A stretch of 64,000 nucleotides of DNA from a virus: the IMG/VR virus record IMGVR_UViG_3300044675_005263, positions 32,001 through 96,000 of that record. One strand, given 5' to 3'. The position numbers and the translations under genes are program-made. Position 1 is the first letter of the stretch. Each line of letters begins with the position of its first letter. Below are positions 6,024 through 25,021 of this stretch, one piece after another. Below the pieces are notes generated by a model. It was given only the letters and a program-made list of their open reading frames with translations. It had not been told where the DNA came from and did no database searches.

Positions 6024-6115
6024 ACCTCTAAAGATACCTTGATCGGTGAACCCTGATTTTTACCCCCATACAATAGAAAAACCCCCACCTCTCGGCAGGG
6101 GCTTCTCTCTACAAG

Positions 6116-6583: not shown

Positions 6584-6892
6584 CTAGGCGTATTCCTTAA
6601 GTTCGGATAGTCGGCGAGGTGTCCAGTTAATATCACGCTCGACCGCAGGAATTTCAATTCCACCCATTGAAAGTTTTAGACTCTGCAACTCGCTAAGGCT
6701 GAAATACCCCAGCTCTTTCTCAAAGCCGTGAACCATTCCGAAGAATAAATCTTCTCCATCAAACTCCATAGCAAACCAAGTCCAGCCACTTCCCAAAGCA
6801 AAAAACTTAGCGATAATCATTGGGTCTTTTACTTCTTCATTTGAGTAAAGTGCTGGCAACTTCTTGCGTAGTTCTTTAGTTAGTAGTTCCAT
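6584..6892 (-). CDS. DUF2958 family protein
   Basis: LP.LY, KFF...GWTW...E.D...FFG.V.G.E.ELGYFSL.EL, ERD. Confidence 0.85.
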   Translation of the reverse strand: MELLTKELRKKLPALYSNEEVKDPMIIAKFFALGSGWTWFAMEFDGEDLFFGMVHGFEKELGYFSLSELQSLKLSMGGIEIPAVERDINWTPRRLSELKEYA

Positions 6893-6964
6893 TTTTTAAC
6901 TCCCTAGTTCTCCAGCTCCCTGCTGGTGTCTTAAGTGTAACACATCTTCCTGACTTTTTCTTCC

Positions 6965-7219
6965 TTATCGGGGCTCTTGATTTTCCTCGATTAAAAACGC
7001 AAACCCTGCGCCATTTCCTTCCTCATCTTGAGAGAGGACTAAACCTAGTCCATTATCAAATTCAAGAATAGGAACAGCGTGGTGATTACTAAAATCCCAG
7101 CCCATAAGTTCTTCGGCTTCTTCTTCGGTAGCGCTTCTAATACTTACGAGCTTGGCACCTACCAATTGTCCCCACTCTTTATTTAAATACTCGGTGAGCT
7201 GAATTGTGTTATTCGTCAT
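6965..7219 (-). CDS. hypothetical protein
   Basis: LVG.K...R......E..GW, SQDEEGNGAG motif. Confidence 0.75.
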   Translation of the reverse strand: MTNNTIQLTEYLNKEWGQLVGAKLVSIRSATEEEAEELMGWDFSNHHAVPILEFDNGLGLVLSQDEEGNGAGFAFLIEENQEPR

Positions 7220-7277
7220 TTTTTTACCCCTCTTGTCGGTTTAGGTCTAGCTTATCTGATCTCTATAATAATTCAAA

Positions 7278-7384
7278 ATAGACACACCGCACCCTTGCTA
7301 GGGAGAGCAAGGGACGGTGCGATAAGCACAAGTGCTTATCTCAACGGGGAGCAGAAAGGGAAGTTCGCTCGACCCGGTGATCTA
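7278..7384 (-). ncRNA. candidate ~105-nt three-hairpin small RNA with C/U-rich loops
   Basis: intergenic, follows TGA-TAAGAT -10; three stems; loops CUUCCCUUUCU and CUCCCU. Confidence 0.5.
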
Positions 7385-7419
7385 ATCTTATCATAATCGG
7401 TGTAACTACTTTTTTACCC

Positions 7420-7725
7420 CTAGCCATTAAAACAATCGGGACACTCTACTTCTCTAGTAGTCCCAGCTAGTTCTGCTTTCATTTTTCCAGCACCGTAACA
7501 AGTCTCGCAGTTCGGGTCGCCTTCATCAAGAATTCCTATATGGTTTGAAACAGACTCAACGTCCCAACCGTAGTGCTCCCTCATCAACTGACTAGCTACT
7601 CTAAGACAAGCGTCCTCGTAGACTTCGCCATCTTTTACCCCTTCTTCGGGAACGCCTACCGTAACCATCATTGAGAAATAATCCCCAATAAACATAACGG
7701 TGCGAGTATCCATAACCTTATCCAT
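7420..7725 (-). CDS. hypothetical protein with C-terminal CxxC.G.G...CxxC Zn finger
   Basis: CETCYGAG...CPDC. Confidence 0.75.
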   Translation of the reverse strand: MDKVMDTRTVMFIGDYFSMMVTVGVPEEGVKDGEVYEDACLRVASQLMREHYGWDVESVSNHIGILDEGDPNCETCYGAGKMKAELAGTTREVECPDCFNG

Positions 7726-7749
7726 TTTTTACCCCTACCTAATTAGTGT

Positions 7750-7775
7750 GAGCAGTTTAGCAACTTACTCAGGTT
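7750..7775 (-). ncRNA. H-type pseudoknot element, copy 1
   Basis: CAAC-CU-GAGUA-A-GUUG-CUAAAC-UGCUC; covaries with copy at 33031. Confidence 0.6.
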
Positions 7776-7815
7776 GTTGAGACGGCGACTAGTCTAGTGT
7801 GCAACCGCCTCAAAC

Positions 7816-8136
7816 TTATGCGTAGTCCTCGTCTGTCCCATACCCTGCGCTCGCAAGAGTATCGGCATCTGCTTCTACGTCATTCATTTCGTAAGCCTCT
7901 TCGTCCATTCCGAAAGCAATCTCAGCGCTGTGCCATTCTCCCGTTGCTTCGTCAAGGATATTCTCCTCAATACTCCAATCGGCTTCGTCCCAGCGAACCT
8001 CGTCCTTCATAACCTCGGCGATTTTATCTACGAACCTCTGCATAACCGCTTCGGCTTCTTCGGCACTATTAGCAATAATCTCTACCATTGAGATAGTAAG
8101 GGCTTGCCCTGTGCAGTAATACTTATTTTTGTTCAA
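7816..8136 (-). CDS. acidic hypothetical protein
   Basis: EIIANSAEEA motif; C-terminal DADTLASAGYGTDEDY. Confidence 0.75.
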   Translation of the reverse strand: MNKNKYYCTGQALTISMVEIIANSAEEAEAVMQRFVDKIAEVMKDEVRWDEADWSIEENILDEATGEWHSAEIAFGMDEEAYEMNDVEADADTLASAGYGTDEDYA

Positions 8137-8195
8137 CTTCTTCTCCCTTGTTTGTTGTATCGGTATCCTATCATACCTTCCTGCATTTCGTTAAA

Positions 8196-8780
8196 TTAGA
8201 AACCTCTCGGTGGTCTTTTAAACTCTCGATCTAAAACTTCTAGGCTGAGCAACCCACCTTTAGAATAATCTCGGTCAAGTCTTGTCGTTCCTTTTTTTCT
8301 TTTGAGCCTATTTTTCTCACTGTTGGCTCTATTACAAGTTATGCAGTATCTACCTTTATAGAGTTTTCCAGTAGGTTGAGTGCTCCAAGTAGAAAGAGAA
8401 AACCCTGTATTTCTTGAATTGTATTCGTGTCCTTGAGGGCAGTGAGTGATTTTTGCGTATCTTTCTTTTGAAACTATTGCGGTGCGAATAAAACCTTTTT
8501 TGATCGCTTCTTTTCTAACCAACTTTTCTAAGTGATAAGGATTAACACACTCGGCAATACCGCAGGTCGGCATTAGTATTTCTAACTTAGTGGGGTAATT
8601 TTGGTCTGAATTGTATGCTTGCCAGAAAATAAATCTCGGGTTCATTCTATAATTATGGTCTTGATAGAAAGGAACATTGGTGTTACTAGTCATAGCCCCT
8701 AGCCATAGCCAGCAATTTTCGGTTGTCCATTTATTCGGTATTAAAACTTTTTGTATTAACTCTTTACTTCTAGTAGGCAT
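8196..8780 (-). CDS. HNH-type homing-endonuclease-like protein (possibly degenerate active site)
   Basis: CWLWLG, TCG..ECVNPYHL, THCPQGHEY...NT...RYCITC; catalytic His position reads P. Confidence 0.75.
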   Translation of the reverse strand: MPTRSKELIQKVLIPNKWTTENCWLWLGAMTSNTNVPFYQDHNYRMNPRFIFWQAYNSDQNYPTKLEILMPTCGIAECVNPYHLEKLVRKEAIKKGFIRTAIVSKERYAKITHCPQGHEYNSRNTGFSLSTWSTQPTGKLYKGRYCITCNRANSEKNRLKRKKGTTRLDRDYSKGGLLSLEVLDREFKRPPRGF

Positions 8781-8850
8781 CTTTTCCCTTTTCTCTCACT
8801 CCCTTAGTGAGTCCCTTTGAAAACCAAGTTTATCATACCTTCCTGCATTT

Positions 8851-10490
8851 TCATACTTTAGGGCAATCGGCATAAGGGTTTTCACTTCCCTCGTTGTCCT
8901 CGCAACCGCACCAATTAAATCTTTCTACCTGCGTGGCGTGAGTTAGTTCTGCCAACTCTCCCCAACTTATAGAGTCTTGACTACATTTATGATCGTGTCC
9001 CAAGTTTAGTAGCGTTGTATTTTCATCGGTGTTTAGCTCTTGATCACACTTACCGCATAGCGGAATAATTTTTTCCCTCACTGCGCCACCTCGCAATCGT
9101 GTCCGTAAGCGTATGCTTCACGAGTCATACTTACGCCACACTCTACGCATTTTATTAGCCATACATCTTTAGCGTAATCATAGTCGTCCGTTATTTTCAT
9201 TTTTTACCTCTCCCTAGTTATGGACTCGGTGGGGAGTCGTATTGTTTCCGACCCTCTAGAGTTCAAGCCGTTCAGGTGTCCAGCGACTTCCCCCCACCGA
9301 GATACCTCAATCCTATCATACCTTCCTGCAAAAACAAAACCCCCACGCCATAAGCGTGAGGGCTTGCCGTAATCTTTTTACCCCGCTAAATAAACTCGGT
9401 CAAGTCCCTATCACTTATCTCGCTTACATCTACGCCTTCGGCTTCAGCGATAGCGTCCCAGAGATCAGCTTCGGTAAAGTCCCCCTCGGGCTTCCACTCC
9501 ATAAGTATAGATAGATAATCTTTCCCCACTTTTTTACCCCTCTCCCTCTTCATCTTTTATAAGGGTGAACGAAAACCCAGCGCAATACTCGTCGTGGCTT
9601 GCTCGTGTTGCCGTAAGAACGGTGCCTTCTTGCTTGAACCGTAGAGTAAAGTCCCCGTTTATCTTTAGTGTGTCTAACACTTTATCGAAAGACACTACGG
9701 CTTCCCCTCTAACTTTGTCCCAATTCATATTGCTTCCCGTAATTCTTACGGTATTCCAATCCACGCCAACCGTCTTACGCCAAGTGTTCATCATATCTTT
9801 GAACAACCATACCGAGTCCTGCCAGCAATCAAAACAATCGGCGCTAGGCGTGCCGTCCTCGTTGGTGCAAGTGCAATCGCTTTTCATCTCAAGCGTAATC
9901 TTTTCCATTGTGTCCATTATCTTGCCTTTCCCTAGTTTGTTTGAACAAGATAATCCTATCATACCTTTCTGCAAATAGGGCTCTTCAACTCCATATTGTT
10001 TTTTCCGGGTCCTCTAGCTTCTCGGCCTGGATCCTTTTTTACCCCTCGCCACAAAAAAGAAAAACCCCCGCCGTAGCGAGGGCTTCTCTTACTTCCGTTA
10101 CGCCTTGCCACCTCGTTTGCGATAGCGACCCAACGCTTCATCTAGTGTTGAGCAGTAATCACCGTTTTGAGCAACGAACCCGTTTTCAGTAGCAAGGACA
10201 TTCCATACTACGAACGGCATACCTTCGATAGCAAAATTGACGAATACCGCTACCCAAGAGGCATACAATCCCTGTGTCCGTTCGCCTGTCTTTGTAACCG
10301 CTATGGCAATACGCTCGTTGATAAACTCGCCAGCCTTGAACTCAATCAAGTCTTTAGGCACTTCATTTTGTGTAAGCATTTCTCCCTTTCTTACTAGCCG
10401 TCTTGCTAGTGGAGCAAGCCTATCATACCTCTCTGCACTTTCATAATCGAACCGCTTCCTGGATCCTTTTTTACCCCTGCCCCTTGCCAA
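8851..10490 (-). CDS. run of small early genes (8851-~9080, ~9079-9200, ~9387-9529, 9534-9917, 10098-~10379)
   Basis: each unit has boxed promoter, RBS and terminator; several Cys/His-rich. Confidence 0.6.
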
Positions 10491-10546
10491 AAGAAAAAAC
10501 CCCCACCTTTCGGTGAGGGCTTTTGCCTTGCTAAGTAATAGGGAGA

Positions 10547-10942
10547 TTACTTTGCGGTTAGGACAGGATACTCCGTAGTCTTTGCTACCAAGTCAAAAAT
10601 CTCTCGGTAGTCATTGAACAAAATATCTCCGTCAAAATCGGTGCGTTCCCTTAGGTCAATCTTGACTCGTTCCTCGCCAGCGACAAGCCCAACTTCTGCT
10701 TCGCCAACCCACTTATCTTTCTTATTGACCTTTATTTTTTCCCAACCCATAAGGGCGTAAATCTCTGCCTTGATTTTTTCCAACTCGGCAGTTTGCGCTG
10801 AAATCGTTTCAGAAATAGTTTTCTTTTTTGCGATTAGAGCGAGGACATTAGTTTCATCTAAAACTACTGCCTTCTTTGTTGTTGTTGTTGTTGCTACTGA
10901 CTTTACTTCTACTACTTCGTATGATACTTCGGTGTTAGCCAT
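10547..10942 (-). CDS. hypothetical coiled-coil protein
   Basis: start MANTEV after AAAGGAAA; own promoter TTGCAT-17-TATTGT. Confidence 0.7.
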   Translation of the reverse strand: MANTEVSYEVVEVKSVATTTTTKKAVVLDETNVLALIAKKKTISETISAQTAELEKIKAEIYALMGWEKIKVNKKDKWVGEAEVGLVAGEERVKIDLRERTDFDGDILFNDYREIFDLVAKTTEYPVLTAK

Positions 10943-11062
10943 TTGGCGTTTCCTTTTTCTCTTTGTCTTGTGTAAGTCCGAGCGATTTACCCGAACAAGT
11001 AGAACAATACACTCATCATAACCTTTATGCAAATCGTGGTGAGCGTGTCGTCAAATTATTTT

Positions 11063-14000
11063 TTATTGAGCCTCTGCGTGTTCGTAGAGTCCAGTATAGA
11101 TAATTACCTGACCTTCATTATCGTAGTCATATCCCACTCTTTGAGATAGGGCTTCTACTAGGTATGAGGTAGAGATAGCCCAGCGTGAGAACGCATAGCC
11201 AATTCCCCCACCAATAATCATCATCAGTAAAGTGAAACCATTGAAAAACATTTTTACCTCTTTCCCTTCGTCATTTGGTATTGCTAGGCAAGCCTATCAT
11301 ACCTTCCTTCAATTTTCGACAATCTCCACCTCAAACTCGGTAGAGCGTGCAAGGTCGTGTCCATACTCGTTTTGTAGCCAATCAAGGGCTTTTACCTCTG
11401 CCTCTCTTTGAGTATCGGCTTCTAGCTCCGTTCCAAAATGAGATACATAAGTAGCCTTCCAACTCTTACTCATTTACAACCTCATTTACTAAATCAACAA
11501 AAAGTTCGGCGGCATCACTCTGAAAACTCCACTCGCCGTCATCATACTTAGCAACAACTTCTCCCCATTGAGTATCCGTTAGTTCTTTCAGTTCGTCAGT
11601 TTCGTGGTCGTAGGCATAGTCCTCTACCGTTTCCTTATCCCAATAGGCGACTATCAACTCTTGCTCGCCGTCATACGCTTGCAACTGCTCAACCAAGTCT
11701 TTGACCTTCATGCCGTTACTCCCTTATCTTGATCCGTTTTTACCCCCAGCGTGTCTCGCCGTGTAGGTCTAGGCTCGTGTGCGGAGTTTGTTCCATCCCA
11801 TCCGCACACATCACCACCCGTTAGGTCTACCCACCAGCCAGCCTTATCTAGCCGTATGCCGTAGCCACAGAACTTGCATAGTCTCATTAGTAAGAGGCTC
11901 CTAGTTTGTCGGGATTATTTACTGCGTATTCCACGCCGTTATCGTATCCAGCATAATAAAGACTCTCTAGCCGTTCGGCTAGAACCTTTACCGCCTTATC
12001 CATATCGGACATGCTTGCCTCGAAATACATTATTTCCTCGGCTTGTTCTTTTACATCTTTACGAACTTGTTTTTTTGTTCTCATCTTTGTATCACCTCCG
12101 TCATTTGTTGAGCAAGTTTATCATACCTTTTGATTATTCTGTATCTTTTTCTTGACGGATAACATTTACTGCGTTCATAAAAGTTTCTGCTCGAACTTGA
12201 TTGAAAACAAAGTCGTTCGTCCAAAGTCTAAGAAACCTTATCCATTGTTCTTCCGTGATTTCATATCCGAGTTCAGCTTCGACATCTGACTTACACCAAA
12301 CGCCCCAATGAACAAGTTCATTTGGGTCAAACTCCTGAGCAATAAACTCAGCAACTTGATCAGCGGTGAGGAACTCAGCATCTTCTTCTAGTTCTTCATC
12401 ATCTATCTCTATGTTATTTTCATCTTCCATTTTTTATATCACCCCCTTTTTTTCATCTCAGTTTTACCCCTAGTTCGTGCCGACCCAAGTTATCTAAAGT
12501 TTCTTGGGCAATCTCGATAATCCGTTCTAGGATTTTCGGAGAAATCATATGTTCCAACACGACAGGCTCCTCGCCTTCTGTGTGGTCATGGACAAAGAGA
12601 ACAACATTTCCTGCTTCCGAATAGCCGAAGCCAATCGGATAGGTAGAGGTCATAAAATCTAAGTGCATGGTGTTATCAGACATTGGTGCTATCAGGGTTC
12701 CCTTTGGTAGAACCTGCTTTTTGACTTTTGCCATTTGGCTTTTTCCCTTCGTCATTTGTGGAAGTATCATAGCAGTTTTAGTGGTGGAAATCCACCGCAA
12801 CCATAAATTGTTTTTTTGGGTCTTTCTCAATGCGCTCGTGTAGGTATTGCAGATTTGCGGTGCCAGCCTCTAGGTCAAACATGGCACTATCGTAAGTCCA
12901 GTAGTCGGCAAGTGTTGAGCCAATGGTTCGCAAGTAATGACCGTCCATGCCTAGATTATAGTTATTGACTATGGGTTTGTAATCGGCAATTAGATCAGAA
13001 ATGTTCTCTCTACCTTCTAAGTAAGACAACGCTCTTTTCATATTGGCAACTCGGTATTCAGAGAACTCTTTTATCACTTCGTTCCACTTCTCAGGGTCGT
13101 TAGAATAAAGAATTACATCTGGCTCTCCTTCTCCAAAGAGTCCAGAGAAACGCCCACCTATCTCAGACCAATCAGACCAACTTGCCTCATCAAGTCTGCT
13201 ACCAACTGCGTCAATAGCGTCTTGGTGGTTCTCAGCTTCAACAAAAATCAACTGCACACTATGAGACATTTTTACCCCTACACCTTTCCCCAAGAACGGG
13301 CTTCGGTGTAAGGCTCTGCAACATACTCAGCCCACTTGATTAAATCACGGGGAAACTCACATAGGGCTTCTTGCTCTGCCAACTCTATCGCTTCGTCCTC
13401 TGTGTTGGCTTCGACTTCATAATAAATGTTGTTGTCCTCTGAGAGATACCCTCGCACTATCCATTTCTGCTTTTCCATTTTTACCCCTCTTGTTCGCTTT
13501 GTTCTAAGTTGGAAATGATTTCCTCAGGCGACATAAAATCTAAAAGGTCTAGGTGTGAAGTAAGTTCTACAACTTCGCACTCTCGGCACTCCTCTATTCT
13601 TTCCAGCCTTCTCAGCAGGGCTTCATCTCTTAGTGTTAGTTCCAAACCTTCCTCTATCTTGGAAAAAATAACTCTCATCTGTAAATGAAATCTTTTCATA
13701 TAGTCCAAAGAATTTTGGTATAACTCATTTGAAACTATGTCGTTTTCTTTGAGAATTTTCTCGTTGATTTTGCAGGTAGGTATCCACACAGTTTCATTAT
13801 CTATGATTAGTTGATAGCCATCATCAGAAGTTTTCTTTGAGATAGGTTCGTAACTGTGTCTGACTCTGCTAACTGCCATGCTGTGAATACGAGTTCTCTT
13901 TTTCATTTTCTCCCTTTCGTCGTTTGATAAAGCCGAGCCTATCATACCTTTCTGCTAATCCAAAACTAGAATTGCGTCTTTCTGCAAAATAGGTTTTCCC

Positions 14001-14849
14001 TCGTTCTCAATGTCGCAAACATTTACTATGTGTTCAGCGACAACCACCTTCGCACTTTCTACTGCTTCGTCAATGGTGTGGGTAACTTGATCTAAATGGT
14101 TGCCATTTTGGTAGAGGTCAAACCAGTTGTTATGCACCCAGTAGTAATCCTCATCGTCGTGGGTTGCTTCAAGCTTCTCGTCCGAGTCTAAGTCCGAGCG
14201 TATGAAATCATTTGGTGAGCAGAGGTCATAGTAGTAATCCTCACCCGCTTTGTATTTTAGGTGGGTATCCCCGTCAGCATAAACATCTACTTGGTATCCG
14301 TCTATCTCTATGCTTGCAACCCAACCACGGTCAAAGAACACGCTCTCTGTCCGTTTAGGGTGAGGTGTTTCGTTATAGACAATCTTGTATTCATACAGAC
14401 CCGACTCCACGGTTTTACCCCTCGCCGTTTGCTTGCCGTAAGAACTCGCCAATCTTGTCCGATAGGTCATAGTCAAGATCAACTTCGGCAGGGTCGTCAA
14501 AGTTAGTAGTTCTCCAAACCCCCTCACCAGTTTCAAGGTTGGTGTATTCATAGACCACGCCGTCTTGGAAGTGTGCGTTTAGTGTTTCGTCCTCGGCACT
14601 CCACTTCTTTGTTTCCGTGTTGTATGAAAGTAGAAAATGTATCTCTCTCATTTTTTACCCCCGCTCAATCGAATAAACGAGTTTAGTTAAATCTATGCTA
14701 TCTCTCTCGTCAGGGTGTATTAACTCTGCCCACTCATCTCGGCAATCAAGGCAGACCCAATCAATCCAATCCGAGCCTGTATCTATTACTAGGCAGTTCT
14801 CGGTATCGCACTCACGGCAAGTCAAGCCGTGAAAAACTCTTACCTGCAT
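11063..14849 (-). CDS. run of ~12 small, mostly acidic early genes (11063-11251, 11309-11473, 11466-11711, 11708-11887, 11887-12084, 12134-12430, 12453-12734, 12778-13269, 13278-13478, 13481-13906, 13955-14410, 14415-14651, 14655-14849)
   Basis: contiguous minus-strand ORFs with RBSs and stop/start coupling; no recognisable catalytic motifs. Confidence 0.7.
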
Positions 14850-15140
14850 TTTTTCCCTTTCTCTCTTTGTAGCCCAACCCTATCATACCTATCCAAATAA
14901 TCATAGTAGGAACTCTGAATTATTTTTTCCTAAATGCACTCCTGCACCTCACGCTCAAAAAATTAAAAAAGGTGGCGGTCTGCCCGGAAGTAATAATTCA
15001 CACTTGCCGTAAAGCTTCACGATCAAAATTTACCCCCACAAAGTGAAAAGCCCCACCGAGTAGGTGAGGCTTCTCTAGTTTCTAATCGGGGCGACACATG
15101 CTGGGAAAAATACATACCCAATTAGAAATCCTATTCTAGG

Positions 15141-16919
15141 TCAAGCGACCTGCCTTTGCCCTGCGGTTGAGAGGACTCGCTCTGCGGTTCGCCCAATAGC
15201 CAACGCCGACTCTGTGGGGCTGGTAATCCCTGCCACCACCTGAGCATTTACGCCCTTGCAGAGATACTCTGCCTGTGCGCCTGAGTCGCCAATCGGAAGC
15301 CATAGAACTGCTACGCCATTTCGGGTGCAAGCCTTTAGCCAACGCTGAGCCAATTCGCTTTCCTCAGGTGTGTAATGTCCGTCCGACACAACCACGAGTA
15401 AGCGAGCGCCAGTTCCATTGAGAAGGTTGAGTGAGCCGTCCAATGAACGAAATGCTCGGTCGAACTTTTCAGTTCCGTCAGGTGCAGAATAAACTGAAAC
15501 TTCTTTTAGTCGCTGACCTGCTTTGAGTGTTGGGAAAACATCTGAGCCGTAATAAACCATAGCGCATTGACCCTGAACTCTACGAACTGCCTCAGACATA
15601 ATCCATGCAGTAGAAGCCATTGGTTGCATAGCACTAGACATTGACCCTGAAATATCAACCATTACTCCAACTGTGAGTGTTGGTTCGTCTGTGTGCTTGC
15701 GAACTGTTTTGCGAAAAGCCTCTGCTTGCTTATGAACTCCACGAGAAGCAAGTGCCTTGCTCTGAATAATTGCACGAGTGCGTAATCTCCCCGGAGGTGT
15801 AATGCTATTTACTTCTGTAATGTCCTTCTCACGATACTTTGCCTTTTCCAATGCACGAGCAATCTTTACTGTCGCACTTCTTTCAGAAGCAATAGGCGCT
15901 CTTTTCTCAATCAACTTAGAGGCAGTTCGGAATTCTCCGGGACCTGAACTCTTTGAGAATACTTGACGAGAGATTTCCTCATTTTTCTTTTGCTCTTTAG
16001 AACTCATTGACTTCTTTTCAGCAGACTCTTTCATAGCCTCTGAACTCTGTTGCTCTGATAAATCATCTGCAACATTTTCAGAAACTTCTGAGTCCATGTC
16101 TGCCATGAGTTCGCTCATCATCTTTGCGAAGGCTTCCATTTCCTCAGGAGTAGGTTCTCCCTTTTCTTTCTTTGCTTCTCTTACCAACTCAGCCCACTCA
16201 ACTGCTAATGGGTAGCAAGGAGAAATATCATGGTGGCGAGTGTGGCTTTGGAACTTCTCAATAATCGCAACCAACTTCGCAACTAGGTCAGCACCTAGAA
16301 AATCATTTACTTGCTTGATTAAATCTGTCGCTTCTGTTTCTAGTAATGACCCTGCAACGATACGAGCATGAGCCAATCCCACCAACTGGCAAGCAGACCC
16401 AACGCTAGAATTCTCTGCAAAAGTTTCTTTCGCTTCGTCAATAATTAAACCCATAGCACTTGCTCGTAGAAAGTTCTTTGCTCTAGGCATAGCAATAATT
16501 CCCTGTGCCTCAATGCGACCTTCCTCTAATAACATCAAAGCCTGAAACTCATCTTGCTTTAGGTCTTTAATTCCCTGAGCCATATCCCAAGTAGAAAACT
16601 TTGCGTGGAAGGCTTCGTGCATAATCGCACCAATCGCTTTTGGAAACTCGAATTGGTTGCGTGGCTTTGTAAGGTCGTCAATCAGATTAGGTGTAATACC
16701 TTCTCCAAAAGCCTCAATCGTATTTACCTGCACCTCAGCAAGTGAAGGGATAAAGCAAGCAGGTGCGCCTTCACCTTTGTCTGTGCCAATGCAAGCAACA
16801 ATGTCGCTTCGCTCAGACCACTCATTAACGAGCAATCCAATTTCGTATCCAACTGGTAGCCACTCAGTAGGTGTCTTGACCCCTGAGCCTTTTGTTTCTA
16901 GTGGCTTAATGTGTGCCAT
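15141..16919 (-). CDS. vWA-domain protein (CobT/NorD-like) with N-terminal HExxH motif
   Basis: MIDAS DISGSM, T, VVSDG; HEAFH...EEGRIE. Confidence 0.85.
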   Translation of the reverse strand: MAHIKPLETKGSGVKTPTEWLPVGYEIGLLVNEWSERSDIVACIGTDKGEGAPACFIPSLAEVQVNTIEAFGEGITPNLIDDLTKPRNQFEFPKAIGAIMHEAFHAKFSTWDMAQGIKDLKQDEFQALMLLEEGRIEAQGIIAMPRAKNFLRASAMGLIIDEAKETFAENSSVGSACQLVGLAHARIVAGSLLETEATDLIKQVNDFLGADLVAKLVAIIEKFQSHTRHHDISPCYPLAVEWAELVREAKKEKGEPTPEEMEAFAKMMSELMADMDSEVSENVADDLSEQQSSEAMKESAEKKSMSSKEQKKNEEISRQVFSKSSGPGEFRTASKLIEKRAPIASERSATVKIARALEKAKYREKDITEVNSITPPGRLRTRAIIQSKALASRGVHKQAEAFRKTVRKHTDEPTLTVGVMVDISGSMSSAMQPMASTAWIMSEAVRRVQGQCAMVYYGSDVFPTLKAGQRLKEVSVYSAPDGTEKFDRAFRSLDGSLNLLNGTGARLLVVVSDGHYTPEESELAQRWLKACTRNGVAVLWLPIGDSGAQAEYLCKGVNAQVVAGITSPTESALAIGRTAERVLSTAGQRQVA

Positions 16920-17146
16920 GTCTTTTGTCCTTTTCCCTTTTAGTTTTGTATCGTGTGTCTAACGATAGGTCTATCATACATTTTTATTTATCTATATGCA
17001 ACTTTAGGTCTATCTGTGTCTAGGTCGGAAGGTGTGAATTTTGATCGTAGGACTCAAAGCTTCCCCTCGCTTTTACCCCCTTTGGTTATGGTGAGGACTC
17101 CACCCATGAAGCCCTCACCCAACCAAGTCAGCAATCTAATAGGGAG

Positions 17147-18205
17147 TTAGATTTTCGCTGGCTTATGCTCAGCGCCATAGGCACGAGCAATAACATCAAC
17201 CACCACATCTCTATCTAACTCAGGTGCGCTCGCAATCAAGTTAGCGATAGCAAACTCTGTGCCAAATAGTTCGGCAGTAGAACGGAAAGCAAGCAACTCT
17301 CTCATCTGAGGCGACCAAGAAATCTCGGCGCTATCGCCCTGAGTTCTCTTAAACAAGTTCTGAGCAACGCTCACCATTGTCTTTGGAACTCCCAACTTCT
17401 CAGCCAGTTTCCAATCTGTGGTGAGTTCTGCCTGAATTGCAAAACGAGATAGCAACGCTTCTGAAAGTCGAACTCCCGGAGCGTTAGGGTTGGTTGCACC
17501 CACTACGAAAAAGTTAGGGTGGATTTTGATAGTTCCTCTATCAGGGTTCATTGGAATTGTGAATTCCTTTCGTCCGTCCATAGCACCATAAGCAAATGAA
17601 AGAACTTTAGGGTCAATCAAACCAATTTCGTCAATCAAAAGTGGTTCGCCATTTTCTACTGCCTTTGTAAATTCTCCGTCAATCCACTCAAAGTTTCCAC
17701 TAGGTGTCTGAACGAAACTTCCCAAGAAATCTGAAACTTCTGTATCTCCACTTCCAATAATTGTGTGGAGAGTTTCATCAGCAAATGAAGCCTCAATGAG
17801 TGCAGTTTTTCCAGTTCCCGGAGCGCCATAGAGAAGGACGAACTGTGGGTCGCCAACTCCTTCTGAATTGTATTTTGAGGTGGCTTCTCTCGCTTTGCGG
17901 AGAACTGCTATGTCCTTATGAATTCCCCATTGGCGAGTGAAATACTTTTGTCCATTAGGACGAACATAAAATTCGTCAGCCTCGAAAGACTCGACATTTA
18001 CTTCACTAGGACTCATAGCACCAACTCTCTCTTTGGCTTTTCTGTCTGCGCCACTTGCTCGCTCAACGAAACGACCATTAGGTAATACTTTTGCATTTAG
18101 TCGGAGTGAAGTTTCCTCATGCACATTTTGCACTATGCACTCTGAAACGATATTCCAAAAGTCGCCCCCAATAGAAGCCAAACTCTCTTTGATAATTGTA
18201 TCCAT
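17147..18205 (-). CDS. MoxR/CbbQ/CobS-like AAA+ ATPase
   Basis: GAPGTGKT, LLIDE, ATNP, ALLSRF. Confidence 0.9.
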   Translation of the reverse strand: MDTIIKESLASIGGDFWNIVSECIVQNVHEETSLRLNAKVLPNGRFVERASGADRKAKERVGAMSPSEVNVESFEADEFYVRPNGQKYFTRQWGIHKDIAVLRKAREATSKYNSEGVGDPQFVLLYGAPGTGKTALIEASFADETLHTIIGSGDTEVSDFLGSFVQTPSGNFEWIDGEFTKAVENGEPLLIDEIGLIDPKVLSFAYGAMDGRKEFTIPMNPDRGTIKIHPNFFVVGATNPNAPGVRLSEALLSRFAIQAELTTDWKLAEKLGVPKTMVSVAQNLFKRTQGDSAEISWSPQMRELLAFRSTAELFGTEFAIANLIASAPELDRDVVVDVIARAYGAEHKPAKI

Positions 18206-18217
18206 TTTTATTGCCCC

Positions 18218-18673
18218 CTAAGCAATCTCAACAGGAAAGCCCAATGCTTTTCTGCTTTGGTTGATACGATAAACAACCTTGATAGGTGTTTCTCCCTTTG
18301 ATACTTCTGCCAAATCCTTCTGAGAAGTTTCGACTAGAAATGGCTCATTAACAATAGTCCAACCACCTTTAATAAAACCCTCGAAAATAGAAGTCAGATT
18401 TTCTATGCGCTTCTCAATGTAGGTTTCTCTATCTGAGTCAGCCAAATCCTTCACGCCAATTTCAGCGAGTTCTGTGGCTGGTCGTAGTGTTGTAGCAGAC
18501 CACAACTTCTTTGGTTTATCAGCAGATAACATGCGACGATAAACCTTTGCTGGAACTGGATTTCCTTCGGGAGAAAATCCGTCAGGAGTCATAAAGAACT
18601 CTGTGCGAAATCCCTCTTTAGAGAACTCAGCATAAACTGTGAGTCCTTGCACTTGCTTTGTTTTGTCTAACAT
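18218..18673 (-). CDS. hypothetical protein, first gene of the AAA-vWA operon
   Basis: ACGAAAGGA RBS, promoter upstream. Confidence 0.7.
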   Translation of the reverse strand: MLDKTKQVQGLTVYAEFSKEGFRTEFFMTPDGFSPEGNPVPAKVYRRMLSADKPKKLWSATTLRPATELAEIGVKDLADSDRETYIEKRIENLTSIFEGFIKGGWTIVNEPFLVETSQKDLAEVSKGETPIKVVYRINQSRKALGFPVEIA

Positions 18674-18833
18674 GGGTGTCCTTTCGTCGTTTCGCACCCC
18701 CAAAGTGCGATAAGGCAACTCTAGCAGAAAACATCATAGAGGCAAAATTAGCCTAAGCGTGTCGTAAAAATAGTTCTGCCCCAACGCTAAAACGACGAAT
18801 AAAAGCGTGGGGCAGAATCTTGTTTTGATCGTA

Positions 18834-19431
18834 TTAGGAAATAGAGATTTCCTTTACGATTTCAGGGTCAGGGGTAAAAACTGGCTTCTCCTTATGAAGC
18901 TTTAGTCCAAATTTCTTGAACTCTTTATTAAAGGCTTTATCCTTCTGTGGTCGTCCTGCTTCTACCCACTCGGAAATGACTCGAGCTGCTAGATACCTTT
19001 CCTCGTCCTTTGCTTCCATGACCATAAGGAAGTCCTCCCGGATCCACGCACCAGTTCCAATCACCGTTATCTGATTGGCGTTACCGTAGTTCCCGTCGAT
19101 ATCGAAATAATGTAATCTCATTTTTTACCTCTCTTGTATTCCCACTCCGTTAGGGTAGCACGCCCAGACATTTCCATCTGGGCACGCCGACCTCGAATTA
19201 TTTTTTCCGGGCTTTCTTCAGCATCTTGGATATTTTCTTGAGTTCGTCCTCGCCAAGTTCCACGCCGATTTCGTATGCAACATCTTTGGCGTATCCGTTA
19301 TCCATGGACTCTTCCAACTCCGCTTTATAGATTGGGTCAAGCCCGTTCATGTCCTCGTCGTCAAAGATATAGGCGGTGTCCGATAGGGCGAACCAAGTAT
19401 CCGTTCCAGTATGGCAAACATATAGGGTCAT
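18834..19431 (-). CDS. two hypothetical proteins (18834-19121, 19198-19431)
   Basis: ORFs with RBS, YFD.DGNYG motif in the first. Confidence 0.65.
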
Positions 19432-20033
19432 GCCGATACCTCCGCTTCCTCTTCCTCGTCCTCTTTATAGTTAGGGCAATCCGAGTAGTAAGAACATTCC
19501 TCGGGGTCTTCAACGCATGGACATTCCTCGCCCATCTTCTCCCAGCAAGCGTGGTCAATCTCGCCACCCTCTTCGCTGAACTCCTCGCCGTTCTGGTAAA
19601 TAACAATCCCCCAGAAGCACATGCCAGTCTCATTGTATTTGTGTTCAATACAAAGAGTAGGGAAGATTTCGGCAAGCCGAGCAATCGCTATATCTGGTGG
19701 AGACCAAGCCGAATCAAAAGAGTAGGAAAGTGAATCAGTAGATTCGCTGAAATAAACTGAGTCCTCGCCACAAACATCCCACTTAGTTCCCCAAGAGTTG
19801 ATGTGGTTGTGATACCAGTCCTCGTCTCCTTGAGACCTAAAAGCCTCTCCAATTCTTGGCTCTGCATCTTTTGTTGGAGTAGTGATGTTGTAAAGAGAAA
19901 AGATTGGATTTGCAATCTCTTCAACAGTTCCTTCAATGGTTCGCTTGATTGGGCGACCAACAAACTCCTTAAGATTTTTTAGAGTCTCTTGGTCCCCGGA
20001 AATGTTTATTGTATTTGAGCACCAGTTAGGCAT
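19428..20033 (-). CDS. DUF1281/YubB ferredoxin-like domain protein
   Basis: MPNWCSN, WY....NSWGTKWD, FDSAWSPP, Y.E.G..F.G. Confidence 0.85.
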   Translation of the reverse strand: MPNWCSNTINISGDQETLKNLKEFVGRPIKRTIEGTVEEIANPIFSLYNITTPTKDAEPRIGEAFRSQGDEDWYHNHINSWGTKWDVCGEDSVYFSESTDSLSYSFDSAWSPPDIAIARLAEIFPTLCIEHKYNETGMCFWGIVIYQNGEEFSEEGGEIDHACWEKMGEECPCVEDPEECSYYSDCPNYKEDEEEEAEVSA

Positions 20034-21212
20034 TGTTCTCCTCGTGTTCTATTACAGATTGAGTTATCTCTAACCCAAGAGCCTGAATCTCTTTTCCCAA
20101 ATCGTCAATCGCTTCATCTATGTTTTGACGAACATCAAAGTAATCCCATGGATTTTCGTCAGTCTTTGGTGAGCGAATGTATTGCAAATCAACTGCACAT
20201 GAGACAGCAATGTTGATTACCTTGATTGCGTTCTCATCACCAGCCAAATACTTTTCTGCTAGTTCTTGATACATGTTTTCCCTTTCGTCATTTGTAGTTT
20301 TATTATAGCGATTTACAATCGCTTATTCAACTTCCACCACTCGGAAGTTTTCATCTTCCAAGATAGAAACGCTGAAGTCCAAGTCAATCCCTCTATTGCG
20401 CTCCCCAACTTCAGGGAGGTCGTTGATGTTGATTTCATCATCCATTACTTGCTTTAGAAGAGCCTTTGCCTCTTCATCATTCTTTGCCTCAAACCAAACT
20501 TGGTTCATTGAGATTTCGTTGAATCTAAACGAGTATTGCATTTTTTCCCTTTCGTCATTTGTGGTGTTGGGGAACGAGTTTTTGTTCCTAGGACTTCAAC
20601 CCTATTCAGCATCAGCAAATAGAATCTGCCCCAACAAGCCAAACTTATCATACCTTTCTAGATAAGTGCAACAACACGCCAGAAAGTTTTTGACACTAGA
20701 CATCTTGGTAAATGAAATTGTTTTTTCCCGGCGACCTGGTCCCTCCACACTGGCAACAGCGAATTATTATTTCCGGGTCCAGGGCCTGGCCGCCGACGCT
20801 GTCGCTAAATTATATTTTCCGGGGTGTCATCATTTGCTGCATCAACGATTCTTGTGCGTGCAACTGCAACATCATAAAGTTCGTTGTACTTGACCAAGTT
20901 GTAGATGTCCTCGCAGAACATCTCGGCGGCAGCAATCTGGAGTTCGTCATCCGTCATTGTTATTTCCGGGTCTGTCTGAAGCTGGTCGAGATCGAACTCG
21001 AGTTCTATTTTCGTAACTAACTTTCTTGTCATCCGTTACTCCTCACACTCGCAGAGATGTCCACAGGTATAGCAGACCCACGCCGTTGTCAGGTGGGTGT
21101 AGTACCCATATCGTCTCTCGCCGTGAAATCCTTCAGAGTAGGCGTACCAACGCCCGTCATCTTCCTGAAAGGTGGCTCCGTCTATCTCTCGAGTCTTTTC
21201 TAATGAAATCAT
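20026..21212 (-). CDS. small acidic early genes (20026-20274, 20323-20541, 20805-21032, 21036-21212)
   Basis: ORFs with conserved leaders; last has C-terminal CxxC..CxC. Confidence 0.65.
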
Positions 21213-21301: not shown

Positions 21302-21745
21302 TTAAATTGCTTCTTCCAAACTGAAAGGTGCGCTCGCCGTCAAGCCCGTTGCGTTGCGGTAGAGCCGTGCCCCTTCTTGCCAGTCAGCCCACGAGCCGTC
21401 CGAGCCGATGCTCACCAAACTTCCGTATACCTGCTTGAGGTGAATGAGGCAAGCCGTTACTACAGCGTCGTATGGTTTGTATGCCGTCTTTGTAAACCCG
21501 AAGCCCGATGAGTTGATAGACCAGTCAAAGGTCTCGTGTGAGTCTGGACCGTAGCCGTTGAAGCGGACACTTTCTTTTGTGCATTCCCACTGGCCGAGAT
21601 GGTCGCCCATTGCATCGGCAAGTTGAATCTTTTCCACGTTGGTGGCGTATTCAATAATGGTCCGAGCCCCGTTCATAAACATTTCAAATCTCAAAGCATC
21701 TTCTGGTGAGGTGCCTGTTTTTGTGTAGTAGTGCGTGTATCCCAC
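21302..21745 (-). CDS. conserved phage protein (MGYTHY family), first early gene
   Basis: GTG-GYTHYY, HETF, F.KTA.KPYD.VV.A.L, SDG; RBS GACGAAGGG. Confidence 0.75.
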   Translation of the reverse strand: MGYTHYYTKTGTSPEDALRFEMFMNGARTIIEYATNVEKIQLADAMGDHLGQWECTKESVRFNGYGPDSHETFDWSINSSGFGFTKTAYKPYDAVVTACLIHLKQVYGSLVSIGSDGSWADWQEGARLYRNATGLTASAPFSLEEAI

Positions 21746-21791
21746 GGTGTTCCCTTCGTCATTTAGCAGAGTGATTTCTGCTGCAGGATTT

Positions 21792-21821
21792 ATCATAGAG
21801 GGTCGTTTCTTTCTGTGTCAA
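21792..21821 (-). promoter_or_regulatory. near-consensus sigma70 promoter heading the early region
   Basis: TTGACA-18bp-TATGAT. Confidence 0.75.
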
Positions 21822-21873
21822 GTATTGATGAGAAGTATTTCTAGAGTCGACCTATATCCAAAACGGGCAAAAC

Positions 21874-22928
21874 AAATTGTTACTTCCGGGAGGAGGCGGC
21901 CATCCTGGATCCGTCTTCTTGAAGTTGTTTGTTCCGGGCTTGATGCACTGCAGCTGCGGGCTCTAACGTCACATTATATTTTCCGGGCTCCTGGATCCGA
22001 GCTCGGTCCCTCGGTTTTAAAGTTGAGTCGACATGACTCAAGTTTGCAGTACTTGCATTAATCCATCGATGAGATCTGAAGTGCAGCGCAGCTGTGATCC
22101 GCTGTCAAGTTGTTATTTCCGGGTACCGTATGTCCGCTTTGCGAGCACTTGCTCGCAAAGTCTAATCACCCTGTCAAGTGCTTGTCAAGCTACACGCACC
22201 GTTAAGTTATTTGTTCCAGGCATCGAGCTACAAGCTGCGTCCCATAACTCACACCGTTATATATTTGCGAGCGCTATACCCATGCCGCTCTTTGAATCCC
22301 AAGCCGTTTGCAAGCTGCAGCTGTAATCCCAAGCCGATGTTTTATTTTCCGGGCAAAATTCTTCGGGCCCGATCCGTCTTCACGTTTGTATTGTATTTTC
22401 CGGGACAGCTGGACCTGTTGGTCCCGTTGGTCCCGTTGGTCCTCGCCGCTGCGGGTTATATTATATTTTCCGGGCTTGATGCAAGCACGCCGCCTCCGCC
22501 TCCACCGCCGCCAGTGTATCTTGCCGCTGTCGTCAAATTATATTTTCCAGGCTGGAGGAGCTGCATCCCGGCCCTGGCAAATAGATTTGTTTTTTCCAGG
22601 TGATCCAGATCCATCCTGGCACGCCGCCGTGCTCAAGTCAAGTTATTAGTTCCGGGCATCGGATCTGCAGCTGCTGTTCCCATCTGAGTTGTTAGTTCCC
22701 GGACCAATCCGATCAATACGATCAATCCGATCAAAGTTCTCTATATAGAGTAATTTCTTATTTAGAATCTGGCCAGGTAACGAAGTTTAATCAAGTTAAT
22801 CCTATTGATCGGTTTGATCACGCTTAGTTGGATATCCGTCATCTATTCGATTCAGGCGTACAAGGTTAGAATTAAGTCTGTCCGTCAACTTCGGATCTGC
22901 AGCTAGCTACACCCGGAAGTAACAACTT
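21874..22928. repeat. non-coding array of ~13 copies of a 17-bp motif AARTTRTWWKTTCCNGG
   Basis: TTCC at 21884, 21932, 21981, 22117, 22214, 22347, 22398, 22468, 22545, 22594, 22650, 22696 and an inverted copy at 22912. Confidence 0.8.
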
Positions 22929-23085
22929 AGATAGATGGCGAGGAAGGCGAGGAAGGTTTTCAAAAAGCTCACCGTTATATATTCAGGCGTCCCTATCCCA
23001 CGCCGCTAGTTGAAACTTCAACTACTCGTGGGTAAATAACAATCTGCGATTCCCTTGCCGCTTGCCGCTTTGATACTTGACAACC

Positions 23086-23132
23086 GTTAATATAACTAAT
23101 ACGCTATCCGTTAGCGTATTGGTTATATTAAC
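23086..23132. repeat. 47-bp near-perfect inverted repeat
   Basis: GTTAATATAACTAATACGCTA-TCCGT-TAGCGTATTGGTTATATTAAC (1 mismatch). Confidence 0.9.
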
Positions 23133-23313
23133 TACAAGCGCACGCCGTTTCGGAAGTTAGAGTTGTTAGTTCCGTTAGGAGCTCTGCGGCAGCATTTGCT
23201 CTCGCCGTTACTCGGATGTGTTCTTCCCGTGTCTTGGCTAAATCAATATCCGCTTTCAAGCTCGCCGCTAGCTCTGCAGCTAGCTGCAACTGTAAGTTGT
23301 TATTTCCCGGCAT
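23128..23313 (-). CDS. small helical hypothetical protein
   Basis: overlaps end of TerS-like gene. Confidence 0.6.
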   Translation of the reverse strand: MPGNNNLQLQLAAELAASLKADIDLAKTREEHIRVTARANAAAELLTELTTLTSETACACS

Positions 23314-24238
23314 CTGGATCTGGCCCGTCTTCCTCTTTGGCTGCGGTTGTTATGTCATAGACATCCGATACCTCGGCGTCAATTATTTTTACCCCGTCGT
23401 TGGCTAAGTTGCTTGCCGTATGTGCAGCACCTGCCGCTAGCCGTTGCAAACGTTCAGCCACGATAACGTGAGCTGGCCGCTCCCCAGAAATATCAACTCC
23501 GATATCCAGCTCGGTCCCGCCTCGCACGCCAGCACGGTCAAGTAGTTCCGTTGCTGCTTTGAGCTGGACTGGTTCGGATACTGCGTTCTCCATCAGTTCC
23601 TCGAGCTTATCCACAGCGTAGCTTGCCGATTGCATAATCTTGATTCGTGCCCGTTCGACATCTGCGCCCGGCCGTCTGATGCCTTTAAGGTGGACACGAC
23701 ACAGACCGTCATCTTTAACACGACCTGAGCCCCACAACATACATCGGATGCCGTCTGACTTAATCTTGGTACAGCGATGAGGCATAGCCGCTGGCGCTCG
23801 CTTTGAGGATTTCGGGCCAGTCTCTTGTTCTGCTTGCCATGTTCGGGTGGCGCCGATAACCCAAGGTGGGCAAATCTTTATAGCATCGTCATCGAGGAGG
23901 AGCTCGAGGCCCGTCAGGAAATCCGAGTTATTATTTCCCGGATCTAACAATAACGGTTTCTTCTCGGCCAAGCTCATCAGCCGCCTTTCTTTGATGGCTT
24001 CTTGTGAGCGGGCGGCAATCAACCCTGTCGGGGCGCCTGACTGGTCATAGACCGAATCCCAGTTGAGCATCGCCTTTCGAAGGGCGGCTCGATTCTCATA
24101 AGTATCTTCTACAACTCCCTTTTCAACTTCGAGCATGCCAAGAGCCGAAAGGTCAGGGCGATAGTCGATGGGGGTATCTACAACTGGTGTTGTATCTTCC
24201 GGGCCATCTTCAGGATCGAAGGGGGAGATGTCTGTCAT
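23300..24238 (-). CDS. probable terminase small subunit
   Basis: RC.....G.RC.........LCRVH Zn-like segment followed by A..KL.EL.......V.L.AA.ELLDRAG helical motif typical of actinophage TerS. Confidence 0.55.
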   Translation of the reverse strand: MTDISPFDPEDGPEDTTPVVDTPIDYRPDLSALGMLEVEKGVVEDTYENRAALRKAMLNWDSVYDQSGAPTGLIAARSQEAIKERRLMSLAEKKPLLLDPGNNNSDFLTGLELLLDDDAIKICPPWVIGATRTWQAEQETGPKSSKRAPAAMPHRCTKIKSDGIRCMLWGSGRVKDDGLCRVHLKGIRRPGADVERARIKIMQSASYAVDKLEELMENAVSEPVQLKAATELLDRAGVRGGTELDIGVDISGERPAHVIVAERLQRLAAGAAHTASNLANDGVKIIDAEVSDVYDITTAAKEEDGPDPDAGK

Positions 24239-24421
24239 GGTTGGTTGCCTGTTAAGTCGAGGATTTGTTTGATGGCAAATTCCTCAGCGGCTTGTGCATC
24301 TGCCAAAGCTTTTGCTTGGGCTATCTCTGCTGGTGTTGGTTCTGTTGGTGTTGACATTTTTACCTCTCTATGATAAGGAAGCCCCTAGAGTTTTTACCCC
24401 TAGGGGACAACCTTTTTACCC

Positions 24422-24715
24422 CTACTTCTTTTTTGCTGGGGCTTTCTTCTTTGCGGCCGCAGCTGTGGAAATCTTCTTTGTTACTTCCGCCGTCGCTGTT
24501 TCAGCGATCAGTCCGAAGGCTGGGTCACTCTTCTTTGCGTATCTGATTACAACAGGAACTAAGGATGCCCAGAGAGCATTGGCTACAAGAAGCCATTCGC
24601 TTGAACCGAAGTTAGTTGGACTGCCTACTCCGCTTGTTTGGCTAACAATGGTGATTGCACCAATGATTTGACCAAGCAAGTTTCTTAAGTAGGAGTCGAT
24701 CATTGCTTTGTTCAT
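24422..24715 (-). CDS. putative holin
   Basis: two TM segments, SY.R, RY....DPAFG, basic C-tail. Confidence 0.65.
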   Translation of the reverse strand: MNKAMIDSYLRNLLGQIIGAITIVSQTSGVGSPTNFGSSEWLLVANALWASLVPVVIRYAKKSDPAFGLIAETATAEVTKKISTAAAAKKKAPAKKK

Positions 24716-24948
24716 GTATTACTCCATATCGTCAAACAGGGTGCTTGACATATGAACAATAGCACGATTAGGGGTAAAAAGATTTTTGCGCCCGTTGAGA
24801 GAGATACAAGGTGTTTTACCCTTTCATAAACAACACTTGGTTTGAGCGTGTTGAACTACGCACGGATTAGGGGTCTAATTACTGTTTCATCATAGAGGTT
24901 GTTGTACAGAAAGTTGTGTAAGTTGTTATATAAAAGTGCTTCTGAAAG

Positions 24949-25021
24949 CGCCCTCGGCAGGAGTCGAACCTGCGGCCAATCGGGTAGAAACCGAGTGCTC
25001 TATCCTCTGAGCTACGAAGGC
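24949..25021 (-). tRNA. tRNA-Arg(TCT), CCA not encoded
   Basis: cloverleaf: GCCTTCG/CGAGGGC acceptor, D-loop with A20, loop TTTCTAC, GGTTCGACTCC T-arm. Confidence 0.9.

Follow-up and report, generated by a model that had tools for sequence, protein, structure and literature searches.

The window analysed here is a stretch of 64,000 nucleotides (nt) that covers positions 32,001 to 96,000 of IMG/VR virus record IMGVR_UViG_3300044675_005263, a linear contig of 105,346 bp with a CheckV completeness of 79% that derives from an uncultured, actinophage-like virus of approximately 135 kb. Genes in the window run on the minus strand until approximately position 28000 and on the plus strand after it. 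Within the minus-strand part, a gene encoding a 312-amino acid (aa) protein that resembles small terminase subunits (TerS-like) is followed by a 61-aa open reading frame (ORF), then, at a distance of approximately 600 bp from the gene, by an array of 17-nt repeats, and finally by the early genes. The array and the stretch that contains it (21797-23127, minus strand) are the subject of this report. An earlier note on this DNA had read the array as a candidate packaging site or replication origin gated by methylation of CCNGG sequences. For comparison with this record (G000), we used two complete relatives: G001, a close relative (locus L001; 135,031 bp, 100% complete), and G002, whose lineage is distinct from both the record and G001.

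A non-coding repeat array at the head of the early genes

The main array spans 21874..22702 and consists of 12 co-oriented 17-nt sites separated by GC-rich, palindrome-rich spacers. On the plus strand the copies start at 21874, 21922, 21971, 22107, 22204, 22337, 22388, 22458, 22535, 22584, 22640 and 22686. As the local genes run on the minus strand, we give the sense form of the 17-mer on that strand, where it reads CCNGGAA(A/C)WWWYAAYWT. An exact search of the window for AARTTRTWWKTTCCNGG gives nine matches (0.00 expected), and 46 are found when up to three mismatches are allowed (11.2 ± 3.3 expected). A single inverted copy is found at 22912..22928 (plus strand), of which 16 of the 17 positions are kept in L001. 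The 12 direct copies that the earlier note had placed at 21874-22928 are therefore borne out, as 12 co-oriented copies and one inverted copy.

Across the whole 105-kb record, the motif is concentrated at 20.7-24 kb of the window. A satellite trio with 46-bp spacing (20715, 20761 and 20807) and a further copy at 20954 together occupy 20715..20970 on the minus strand, and all four lie upstream of an early-type promoter. Two outlying intergenic copies were found on the same strand, one at 19195..19211, which overlaps a 77-aa ORF at its stop codon and precedes an extended -10 promoter by 45 nt, and one at 9993..10009, approximately 30 nt upstream of an early-class promoter. Further outliers are located at 14983 (opposite strand), 23294 and 23925, the last two of which fall in coding sequence; the copy at 23294 is not kept in L001. 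The satellite trio and the outlying copies lie where they had first been reported. The accompanying description of the array as phased, with spacings of approximately 47 bp or multiples of it, holds in part: seven of the 15 intervals measure 46-51 bp, but the rest (56, 70, 77, 97, 133, 136 and 147 bp) are not clean multiples, so that "phased" overstates the regularity. A spacing of 46-49 bp corresponds to 4.4-4.7 helical turns.

The array is real and the stretch that carries it is non-coding. Every reading frame contains 14 to 25 stop codons, and the stretch of approximately 1.4 kb is the longest ORF-free gap in the record. We considered a coding repeat, given that the copies could be translated as K-L-(F/L/Y)-(V/F)-P-G on the plus strand and as P-G-x-N-N-L on the minus strand, with the free positions mostly at third codon positions. 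This was ruled out by the stop codons, by the presence of copies in all three frames, and by comparison with L001, with which the ORFs are not shared and relative to which the indels are not multiples of three (e.g., 29 nt). An array of clustered regularly interspaced short palindromic repeats (CRISPR) was also ruled out, as the repeats are 17 nt long and degenerate at six positions with spacers of 29-120 nt, whereas CRISPR repeats are near-identical, at least 23 nt long and separated by constant spacers. Structured RNA units were rejected after folding 12 segments (the 11 inter-repeat segments and the stretch after the last copy), which gave z-scores from -2.5 to +0.9, mostly near 0, and an Rfam search returned tRNA only. 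A look-alike of an HspR operator at 22018-22046 is not conserved in L001 and was discarded. Two sequences, TCTAGAGTCGACCT and GAGCTCGG, bear what we take to be a resemblance to cloning polylinkers; a synthetic origin was rejected because palindromic hexamers are in general excess here and both sequences are conserved in independent metagenomes.

A promoter of the form TTGACA-18-TAGACT is located inside the array at 22159..22188 on the minus strand and points toward the early genes. A promoter scan and alignment of the relatives identified it as a sigma-70/sigmaA-type promoter that is conserved in the family and scores 10-11 out of 12. It is flanked by eight copies of the 17-mer upstream and four downstream. 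A hairpin (UUUGCG..CGCAAAG) at 22136..22158, minus strand, recovered by alignment and folding, coincides with the predicted 5' end of the transcript and covaries in relatives; it is followed by an invariant AAYAACTT copy at 22107-22123. The segment 22136-22188 probably represents the principal early promoter together with a stem-loop that stabilises the 5' end. That the array sits where early transcription begins, as had been proposed, is consistent with this conserved promoter firing into the early genes.

Conservation of the layout and divergence of the repeated word

The array is kept in G001 at locus L001, where the region is 81% identical to the window. Motif columns are 83% identical, compared with 75% for the other non-coding columns, and the differences between the two sequences include gain and loss of whole units. 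The central base of CCNGG is altered in five aligned copies, and CCNGG itself is lost in two of the 11 aligned copies in L001; GGAA alone is invariant. Other lineages carry different repeats at the same place, among them AACWTCCAAATAACTT, AACTTCCAACGA and AACTTTTAACGA, none of which contains CCNGG. G002 has its own motif, TCCAAATAACT, of which there are seven exact copies, six of them just after its TerS-like gene. All that the lineages have in common is AAYAACTT, which ten lineages carry unchanged at one syntenic position. In 16 of 31 relatives, the 3 kb that follow the TerS-like gene contain a 10-mer with four or more copies; of the control stretches upstream of the gene, two of 31 do so. 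The zone itself is thus shared by the family, and it is the repeated word that is specific to a lineage.

These comparisons bear directly on the proposed methylation gate. A gate read through CCNGG is not supported, because CCNGG is not conserved in L001 and the other lineages share only AAYAACTT. Among the phage genomes, to which our searches were directed, C5 methyltransferases (PF00145) were not found in G000 or G001, N4/N6 methyltransferases (PF01555) were not found in G000, G001 or G002, and Dam-type methyltransferases (PF02086) were not found in G001 or G002; a host enzyme might still modify the sites. The search for a C5 methyltransferase elsewhere in the genome, one of the checks suggested with the original proposal, was thus negative.

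An alignment of ten lineages revealed a constant order of elements after the TerS-like gene: a small ORF (61 aa here), a covarying hairpin followed by TGTCAA, the inverted AAGTTGTT core at the place of the inverted 17-mer, a partial palindrome (GTACA..TTAG..CTAA..TGTAC), GGN tracts, the promoter, the 5' hairpin and AAYAACTT. In some lineages, a small zinc-ribbon ORF is also present within this stretch. In the window, the family-conserved 61-aa ORF lies directly after the TerS-like gene at 23128..23313 (minus strand), as seen from the ORF list and the alignment, and has the 23294 motif copy in its first codons. The hairpin lies at 23086..23132 on the minus strand and has arms of 21 bp; its position is conserved in the alignment and its sequence covaries. 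It is probably the terminator of the TerS-like operon. The partial palindrome (22858..22883, no strand assigned) is of the type GTACA-N3-TTAG..CTAA-N3-TGTAC, is operator-like and is conserved in sequence across lineages whose TerS-like proteins are 57-68% identical. It is a better candidate than the 17-mers for the site of a conserved protein.

Other features of the region are less widely shared or lie outside the array. A second promoter-like site found by the promoter scan (TTGACA-18-TATGAT, 11/12; 21792..21821, minus strand) overlaps the start of a 164-aa ORF, the first after the array (21302..21796, minus strand). Family searches showed that this ORF is lineage-specific, with a counterpart in the close relative only and no family match. 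A class of early promoters with the form CAGGAAGG-N5-TANNNT and a TG extension has 13 copies by pattern (positions 3818-11309 and 75-4847), and the CAGGAAGG box has CNGGAA in common with the array motif, with a different spacing to the -10 element. No comparable promoter class was present in G002. Promoters for extracytoplasmic function (ECF) sigma factors (GGAAC-N16-17-CGTT) were also considered and rejected, as no consistent -10 partner was seen by eye and no sigma-factor gene was found. A tRNA-Arg gene (TCT) is located at 24948-25021 on the minus strand, approximately 700 bp upstream of the TerS-like gene. A 40-aa ORF that overlaps the start of the TerS-like gene is preceded by three GGGGTAAAAA boxes with a CCCCTAGGGG palindrome (24360-24425); the usual ribosome-binding context of this phage appears to be GAGGTAAAAAATG.

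Several small sequence features lie within the non-coding region itself. A collagen-type fragment at 22409-22442 (minus strand) has exact matches of 14-16 nt to collagen-like tail-fibre genes at approximately 60040, 60114, 61904, 62664 and 65769, and in L001 a similar fragment occupies another repeat unit. Three copies of a 9-bp repeat, GATCAATCC, together with an inverted partner surround an AT-rich centre (22702-22734 and 22796-22819) and are absent from the 81%-identical L001. A low-complexity GGN/CCN tract (22485-22511; e.g., GGCGGCGGTGGAGGCGGAGGCGG) has equivalents in either orientation in the non-coding region of L009, L011, L014, L024 and L037.

Palindromes, a polar octamer and the TerS-like protein

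Palindromic hexamers are distributed unevenly around the array. The array contains 38, compared with 24.8 ± 4.7 in dinucleotide shuffles, whereas the early block at 2500-20500 contains 59 against 253 ± 15 in shuffles, an approximately four-fold depletion. A control block has 188 against 258, and elsewhere in the genome the count runs at approximately 0.7 of expectation. The palindrome desert is sharpest at approximately 3000-18900 and measures 16-18 kb. G001 and G002 have the same layout, with a TerS-like gene, a repeat zone of normal or high palindrome density and a desert of 15-18 kb (63-78 kb in G001 and 99-117 kb in G002). Individual words differ: CGCG is absent from the record (approximately 234 copies expected) and occurs 18 times in G001 and 170 times in G002, which indicates that its avoidance is lineage- or host-specific, while CCGG in the record is at 0.25 of expectation with 16 of its 58 copies in the array region. 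A block-wise lack of restriction-type sites is expected of DNA that is exposed before protective functions are in place, the known example being the first-step-transfer DNA of phage T5. This suggests that the palindrome-poor early block is the DNA first exposed to restriction after ejection.

The octamer RCGGCRWG shows a strong strand bias over the same part of the genome. The record contains 30 copies on the minus strand and six on the plus strand. Of the former, 28 fall between 9370 and 23419, irrespective of whether the sequence is coding or non-coding. In the 14.5 kb scanned there are 28 sense copies and one antisense copy, compared with 1.5 ± 1.1 in shuffles. Using the looser form RCGGCNNG in 39 relatives, we counted 2.82 copies per kb forward and 0.33 per kb reverse from the TerS-like gene onward, compared with 0.30 and 0.28 upstream of the gene. 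The polar domain has its start at the TerS-like gene, and nine RCGGCRWG copies fall in the array region. The octamer would fit a Chi-like, a translocase-guiding or a transcription-linked signal. To our knowledge, no Chi sequence has been described for actinobacteria.

The protein encoded upstream of the array (23300..24238, minus strand) matched nothing in Pfam or PHROG. Profile and structure searches point to a beta-alpha-beta fold in the N-terminal domain, to a Cys3His cluster and, at the C-terminus, to a helical hairpin like that of small terminases. In a search of the PDB with a profile of 27 homologues, two small terminases ranked first and second (7joq, E = 0.0045; 6w7t, E = 0.26), with the alignment over the helical hairpin LKAAxxILDRAG. 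The AlphaFold model of the whole protein has a mean predicted local distance difference test score (pLDDT) of 72, and is predicted to have a beta-alpha-beta-beta-alpha domain and the Cys3His cluster in place of an N-terminal helix-turn-helix. In an all-against-all structure search, the NV1 small terminase (7joq_I) ranked first of 48,161 chains (Z 5.6, root-mean-square deviation 1.8 Å, 53 residues), a match that is suggestive only because it is short and helical. Foldseek returned nothing significant, with the PaP3 small terminase having the highest probability, 0.57. In Microbacterium phages a homologue occupies the physical left end of the genome as gene 1; in Microbacterium phage Cece it lies 62 bp from the end, inside a direct terminal repeat of 18,079 bp, and is annotated as TerS. 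The window also has an ORF resembling large terminase subunits (TerL-like) at 50151-51560, 26 kb from the TerS-like gene; the corresponding pair in Cece is approximately 21.6 kb apart. Taken together, the profile, the model and gene position point weakly but consistently to a TerS-like protein, which is a reasonable if provisional assignment. The description of this neighbour as TerS-like in the earlier note is accordingly plausible on the PDB-profile and structure rankings and on gene 1 of Cece.

Homologues of the 312-aa protein number at least 1879 in metagenomes, all of them unnamed and many at 60-70% identity; over 80 loci the protein is 55-78% identical. The nearest named genome is that of the metagenome-assembled "Actinomycetia phage DSL-LC01" (57% identity for this protein), for which an actinobacterial host was predicted by its authors and WhiB genes were reported (PMC10611076). 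Further-off relatives are Microbacterium and Arthrobacter phages of approximately 190 kb. A search of a prokaryote genome collection for relatives that could give host or prophage context found none. The family is probably a large group of uncultured phages with actinobacterial hosts, and the group is abundant in metagenomes and probably consists of freshwater actinophages.

Interpretation of the proposed control region

We tentatively favour the reading that 21797-23127 (minus strand) is a family-conserved, non-coding, cis-acting nucleoprotein control region. A protein that recognises DNA sequence-specifically and varies from lineage to lineage would bind the 17-mers as iterated sites, with CCNGG as a local part of the site and AAYAACTT as the family-wide core. 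Occupied sites around the early promoter would assemble into a nucleoprotein complex in front of the early genes. The palindrome-poor block of 16-18 kb, approximately 3 kb beyond, would be the DNA that meets host restriction first after ejection, and the complex may regulate or insulate early transcription, may mark the boundary of the first-entering DNA or cause a pause there, or may do both, as has been proposed for repeat region 3 of T5. The repeats, their non-coding setting, the conserved layout, the promoter with its hairpin, the palindrome island and desert and the lack of methyltransferases are observed; binding by a protein, the nature of that protein, the order in which the DNA enters and any pause are inferred.

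In make-up, the array resembles the T5 repeat region 3, or injection stop signal (iss), of the left terminal repeat. In both cases the order of elements is conserved among relatives while the neighbouring ORFs are variable, and in both cases the region adjoins early genes that must survive host restriction before protection. The two systems differ in that the repeat sequences are unrelated, the phage family here is unrelated to T5 (actinophage-like), the desert is approximately 3 kb away and no paired DnaA boxes were seen; homologues of A1 and A2 were neither sought nor seen here. A stepwise genome delivery as in T5, in which the palindrome-free block of 16-18 kb would enter first, the array would be the stop or anchor, and RCGGCRWG would be a Chi-like signal taming the end-processing nuclease of the actinobacterial host at the exposed DNA end, seems to us doubtful.

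Several observations weigh against the favoured reading of a nucleoprotein control region. The desert does not abut the array. The actinobacterial DnaA box consensus TTGTCCACA, which would be expected in pairs if the region were like that of T5, was not seen by eye in the region, although no pattern search was made, and the nearest sequence is a single conserved TTGTCAAG. Among candidate binders, the neighbouring small ORFs have no match to a DNA-binding family (the 164-aa neighbour was rejected as a repeat binder, having no family and no lead in a structural atlas), and the absence of an Lsr2 gene from all three genomes led us to reject an Lsr2 silencing platform. The repeats of L058 (9200-11500) and L011 (9280-10100) form one arm of small hairpins (AACTTC..GAAGTT, or AAACAACT..AGTTGTTT) and also occur within coding sequence, which would fit an RNA-level or recombination role too. 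Cece is the sole relative whose ends have been mapped, and the array, the palindrome desert and the octamer are all missing from it; although its terminal repeat begins at the homologous gene, it was for this reason rejected as a model. The contig ends of the complete genome G002 are far from its repeat region. Contig breaks of relatives cluster 0.2-7 kb upstream of the TerS-like gene, several of them at tRNA genes, some in the vicinity of the tRNA-Arg gene noted above; as the contigs start upstream of the TerS-like gene without a common sequence, reading physical ends from contig ends was rejected. The ends of G001 join via a 123-bp overlap to give a circular assembly, and since this is an assembly overlap it carries no information on physical ends.

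A packaging site, where the array would be a platform on which the TerS-like protein assembles to start or orient packaging without a methylation switch, is in our view unlikely, even though the array adjoins the TerS-like gene in the sole large non-coding region of the record and the homologue in Cece is gene 1 beside the left physical end. Known pac and cos sites (SPP1, lambda cosB and P1) consist of repeated TerS sites in or beside terS, and the SPP1 pacL/pacR sites, lambda cosB R sites and P1 pac hexamers share with the array the placement of repeated short sites next to a small-terminase(-like) gene. Such sites, however, cover 100-300 bp with three to seven repeats upstream of or inside terS, which at least 12 sites over 830 bp far exceed, and here the array is downstream of the gene, whereas the mapped end of Cece is upstream of it. 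P1 pac, the analogy drawn in the earlier note, is methylation-dependent, in contrast to the lack of methyltransferases found here. A conserved reader should have a conserved site, yet the motif changes completely by lineage while the protein remains 55-78% identical, and by the same comparison a TerS-like protein with many homologues at 60-70% identity is argued against as the reader of the CCNGG part. Further copies of the motif also lie 4-14 kb away and in the other arm of the genome. We assign a similarly low probability to the 17-mers being transcription signals themselves, with no higher-order complex, either as weak tandem promoters whose last six bases (YAAYWT) serve as a -10 element or as oriented roadblock or termination sites. 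In keeping with this, the local genes and 17 of 19 non-coding copies point the same way in both arms, the dispersed copies lie between genes, either at gene ends or 4-150 nt before a -10 element, CNGGAA is shared with the CAGGAAGG box of the early promoter class, and one L058 copy lies within a terminator hairpin with a U-tract. The stoperators of cluster A mycobacteriophages (the gp71 sites of L5) are likewise short, asymmetric, in one orientation to transcription, mostly intergenic and lineage-variable. They are nevertheless dispersed, at approximately 30 per genome, and need an immunity repressor, while the sites here are stacked in one array, neither a repressor nor a sigma factor was found, and the sequences have no likeness beyond a chance TGTCAAG. 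The fit to TANNNT is poor (by our own count, T is at the first position in approximately 35% of copies and at the last in approximately 70%), there is no TG extension and no fixed distance to a start codon, the inter-repeat units gave no RNA structure signal in the folding and Rfam searches described above, and 12 tandem promoters or roadblocks without genes between them have no obvious purpose.

A replication origin, in which the repeats would be initiator iterons and the internal promoter would give transcriptional activation, is less probable again. Iterated sites alternate with AT-rich patches and have a strong promoter inside, GATC-bearing 9-bp repeats with an inverted partner lie at 22702-22819, and this is the only large non-coding region; as in the iteron arrays of P1 oriR/incA and lambda ori, many direct repeats of 17-19 bp lie in non-coding DNA that gains and loses units. 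Those iterons are in helical phase (approximately 21-22 bp) beside an initiator gene and an AT-rich unwinding element, whereas intervals here are 46-147 bp, and at 46-49 bp, the commonest spacing, neighbouring sites would face opposite sides of the helix. Next to the array there is no initiator gene, the neighbouring ORFs have no match to a replication family and the primase-helicase is 30 kb away, and the GATC repeats are missing from the 81%-identical relative. Nucleotide skew, one of the checks suggested in the earlier note, turns at the strand switch, not at the array: the cumulative AT-skew minimum of G001 is at 57.7 kb, with the TerS-like gene approximately 2.7 kb downstream and the array (61.3-62.8 kb) approximately 4 kb off, and the cumulative GC-skew minimum of G002 is at 88.3 kb, approximately 8 kb from the array (96.8-98.8 kb). 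These turns coincide with the switch in gene orientation, which skew follows, making this a weak test of an origin. Least probable of all, we judge, is an evolutionary residue, where the 17-mers would be recombination or duplication scars, cassette boundaries similar to T4-type promoter-stem-loop cassettes that have piled up without genes and have no collective function. Unit gain and loss between close relatives falls exactly between repeats, the collagen-repeat fragment matching tail-fibre genes sits in different units of two genomes, copies mark gene boundaries in the small-ORF region and the motif differs by lineage, all of which a residue would accommodate. Set against these are the repeat-rich zone at the same place in 16 of 31 relatives with internal blocks in constant order, the higher conservation of motif columns than of spacers (83% and 75%), and the fact that dense phage genomes seldom keep 1.4 kb of functionless DNA over a family of at least 1879 members.

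Since the TerS-like neighbour has at least 1879 unnamed homologues in metagenomes, the region is a putative control element that recurs in an abundant, uncultured group of phages. If it is only a lineage-specific regulator array, it would be an ordinary, though large, case of phage cis-regulation. If the octamer is Chi-like, it would point to a host recombination signal that is so far undefined in actinobacteria. If the region is a true boundary of stepwise entry, or the start of packaging, it would provide a handle on DNA delivery, packaging and restriction evasion in these phages.

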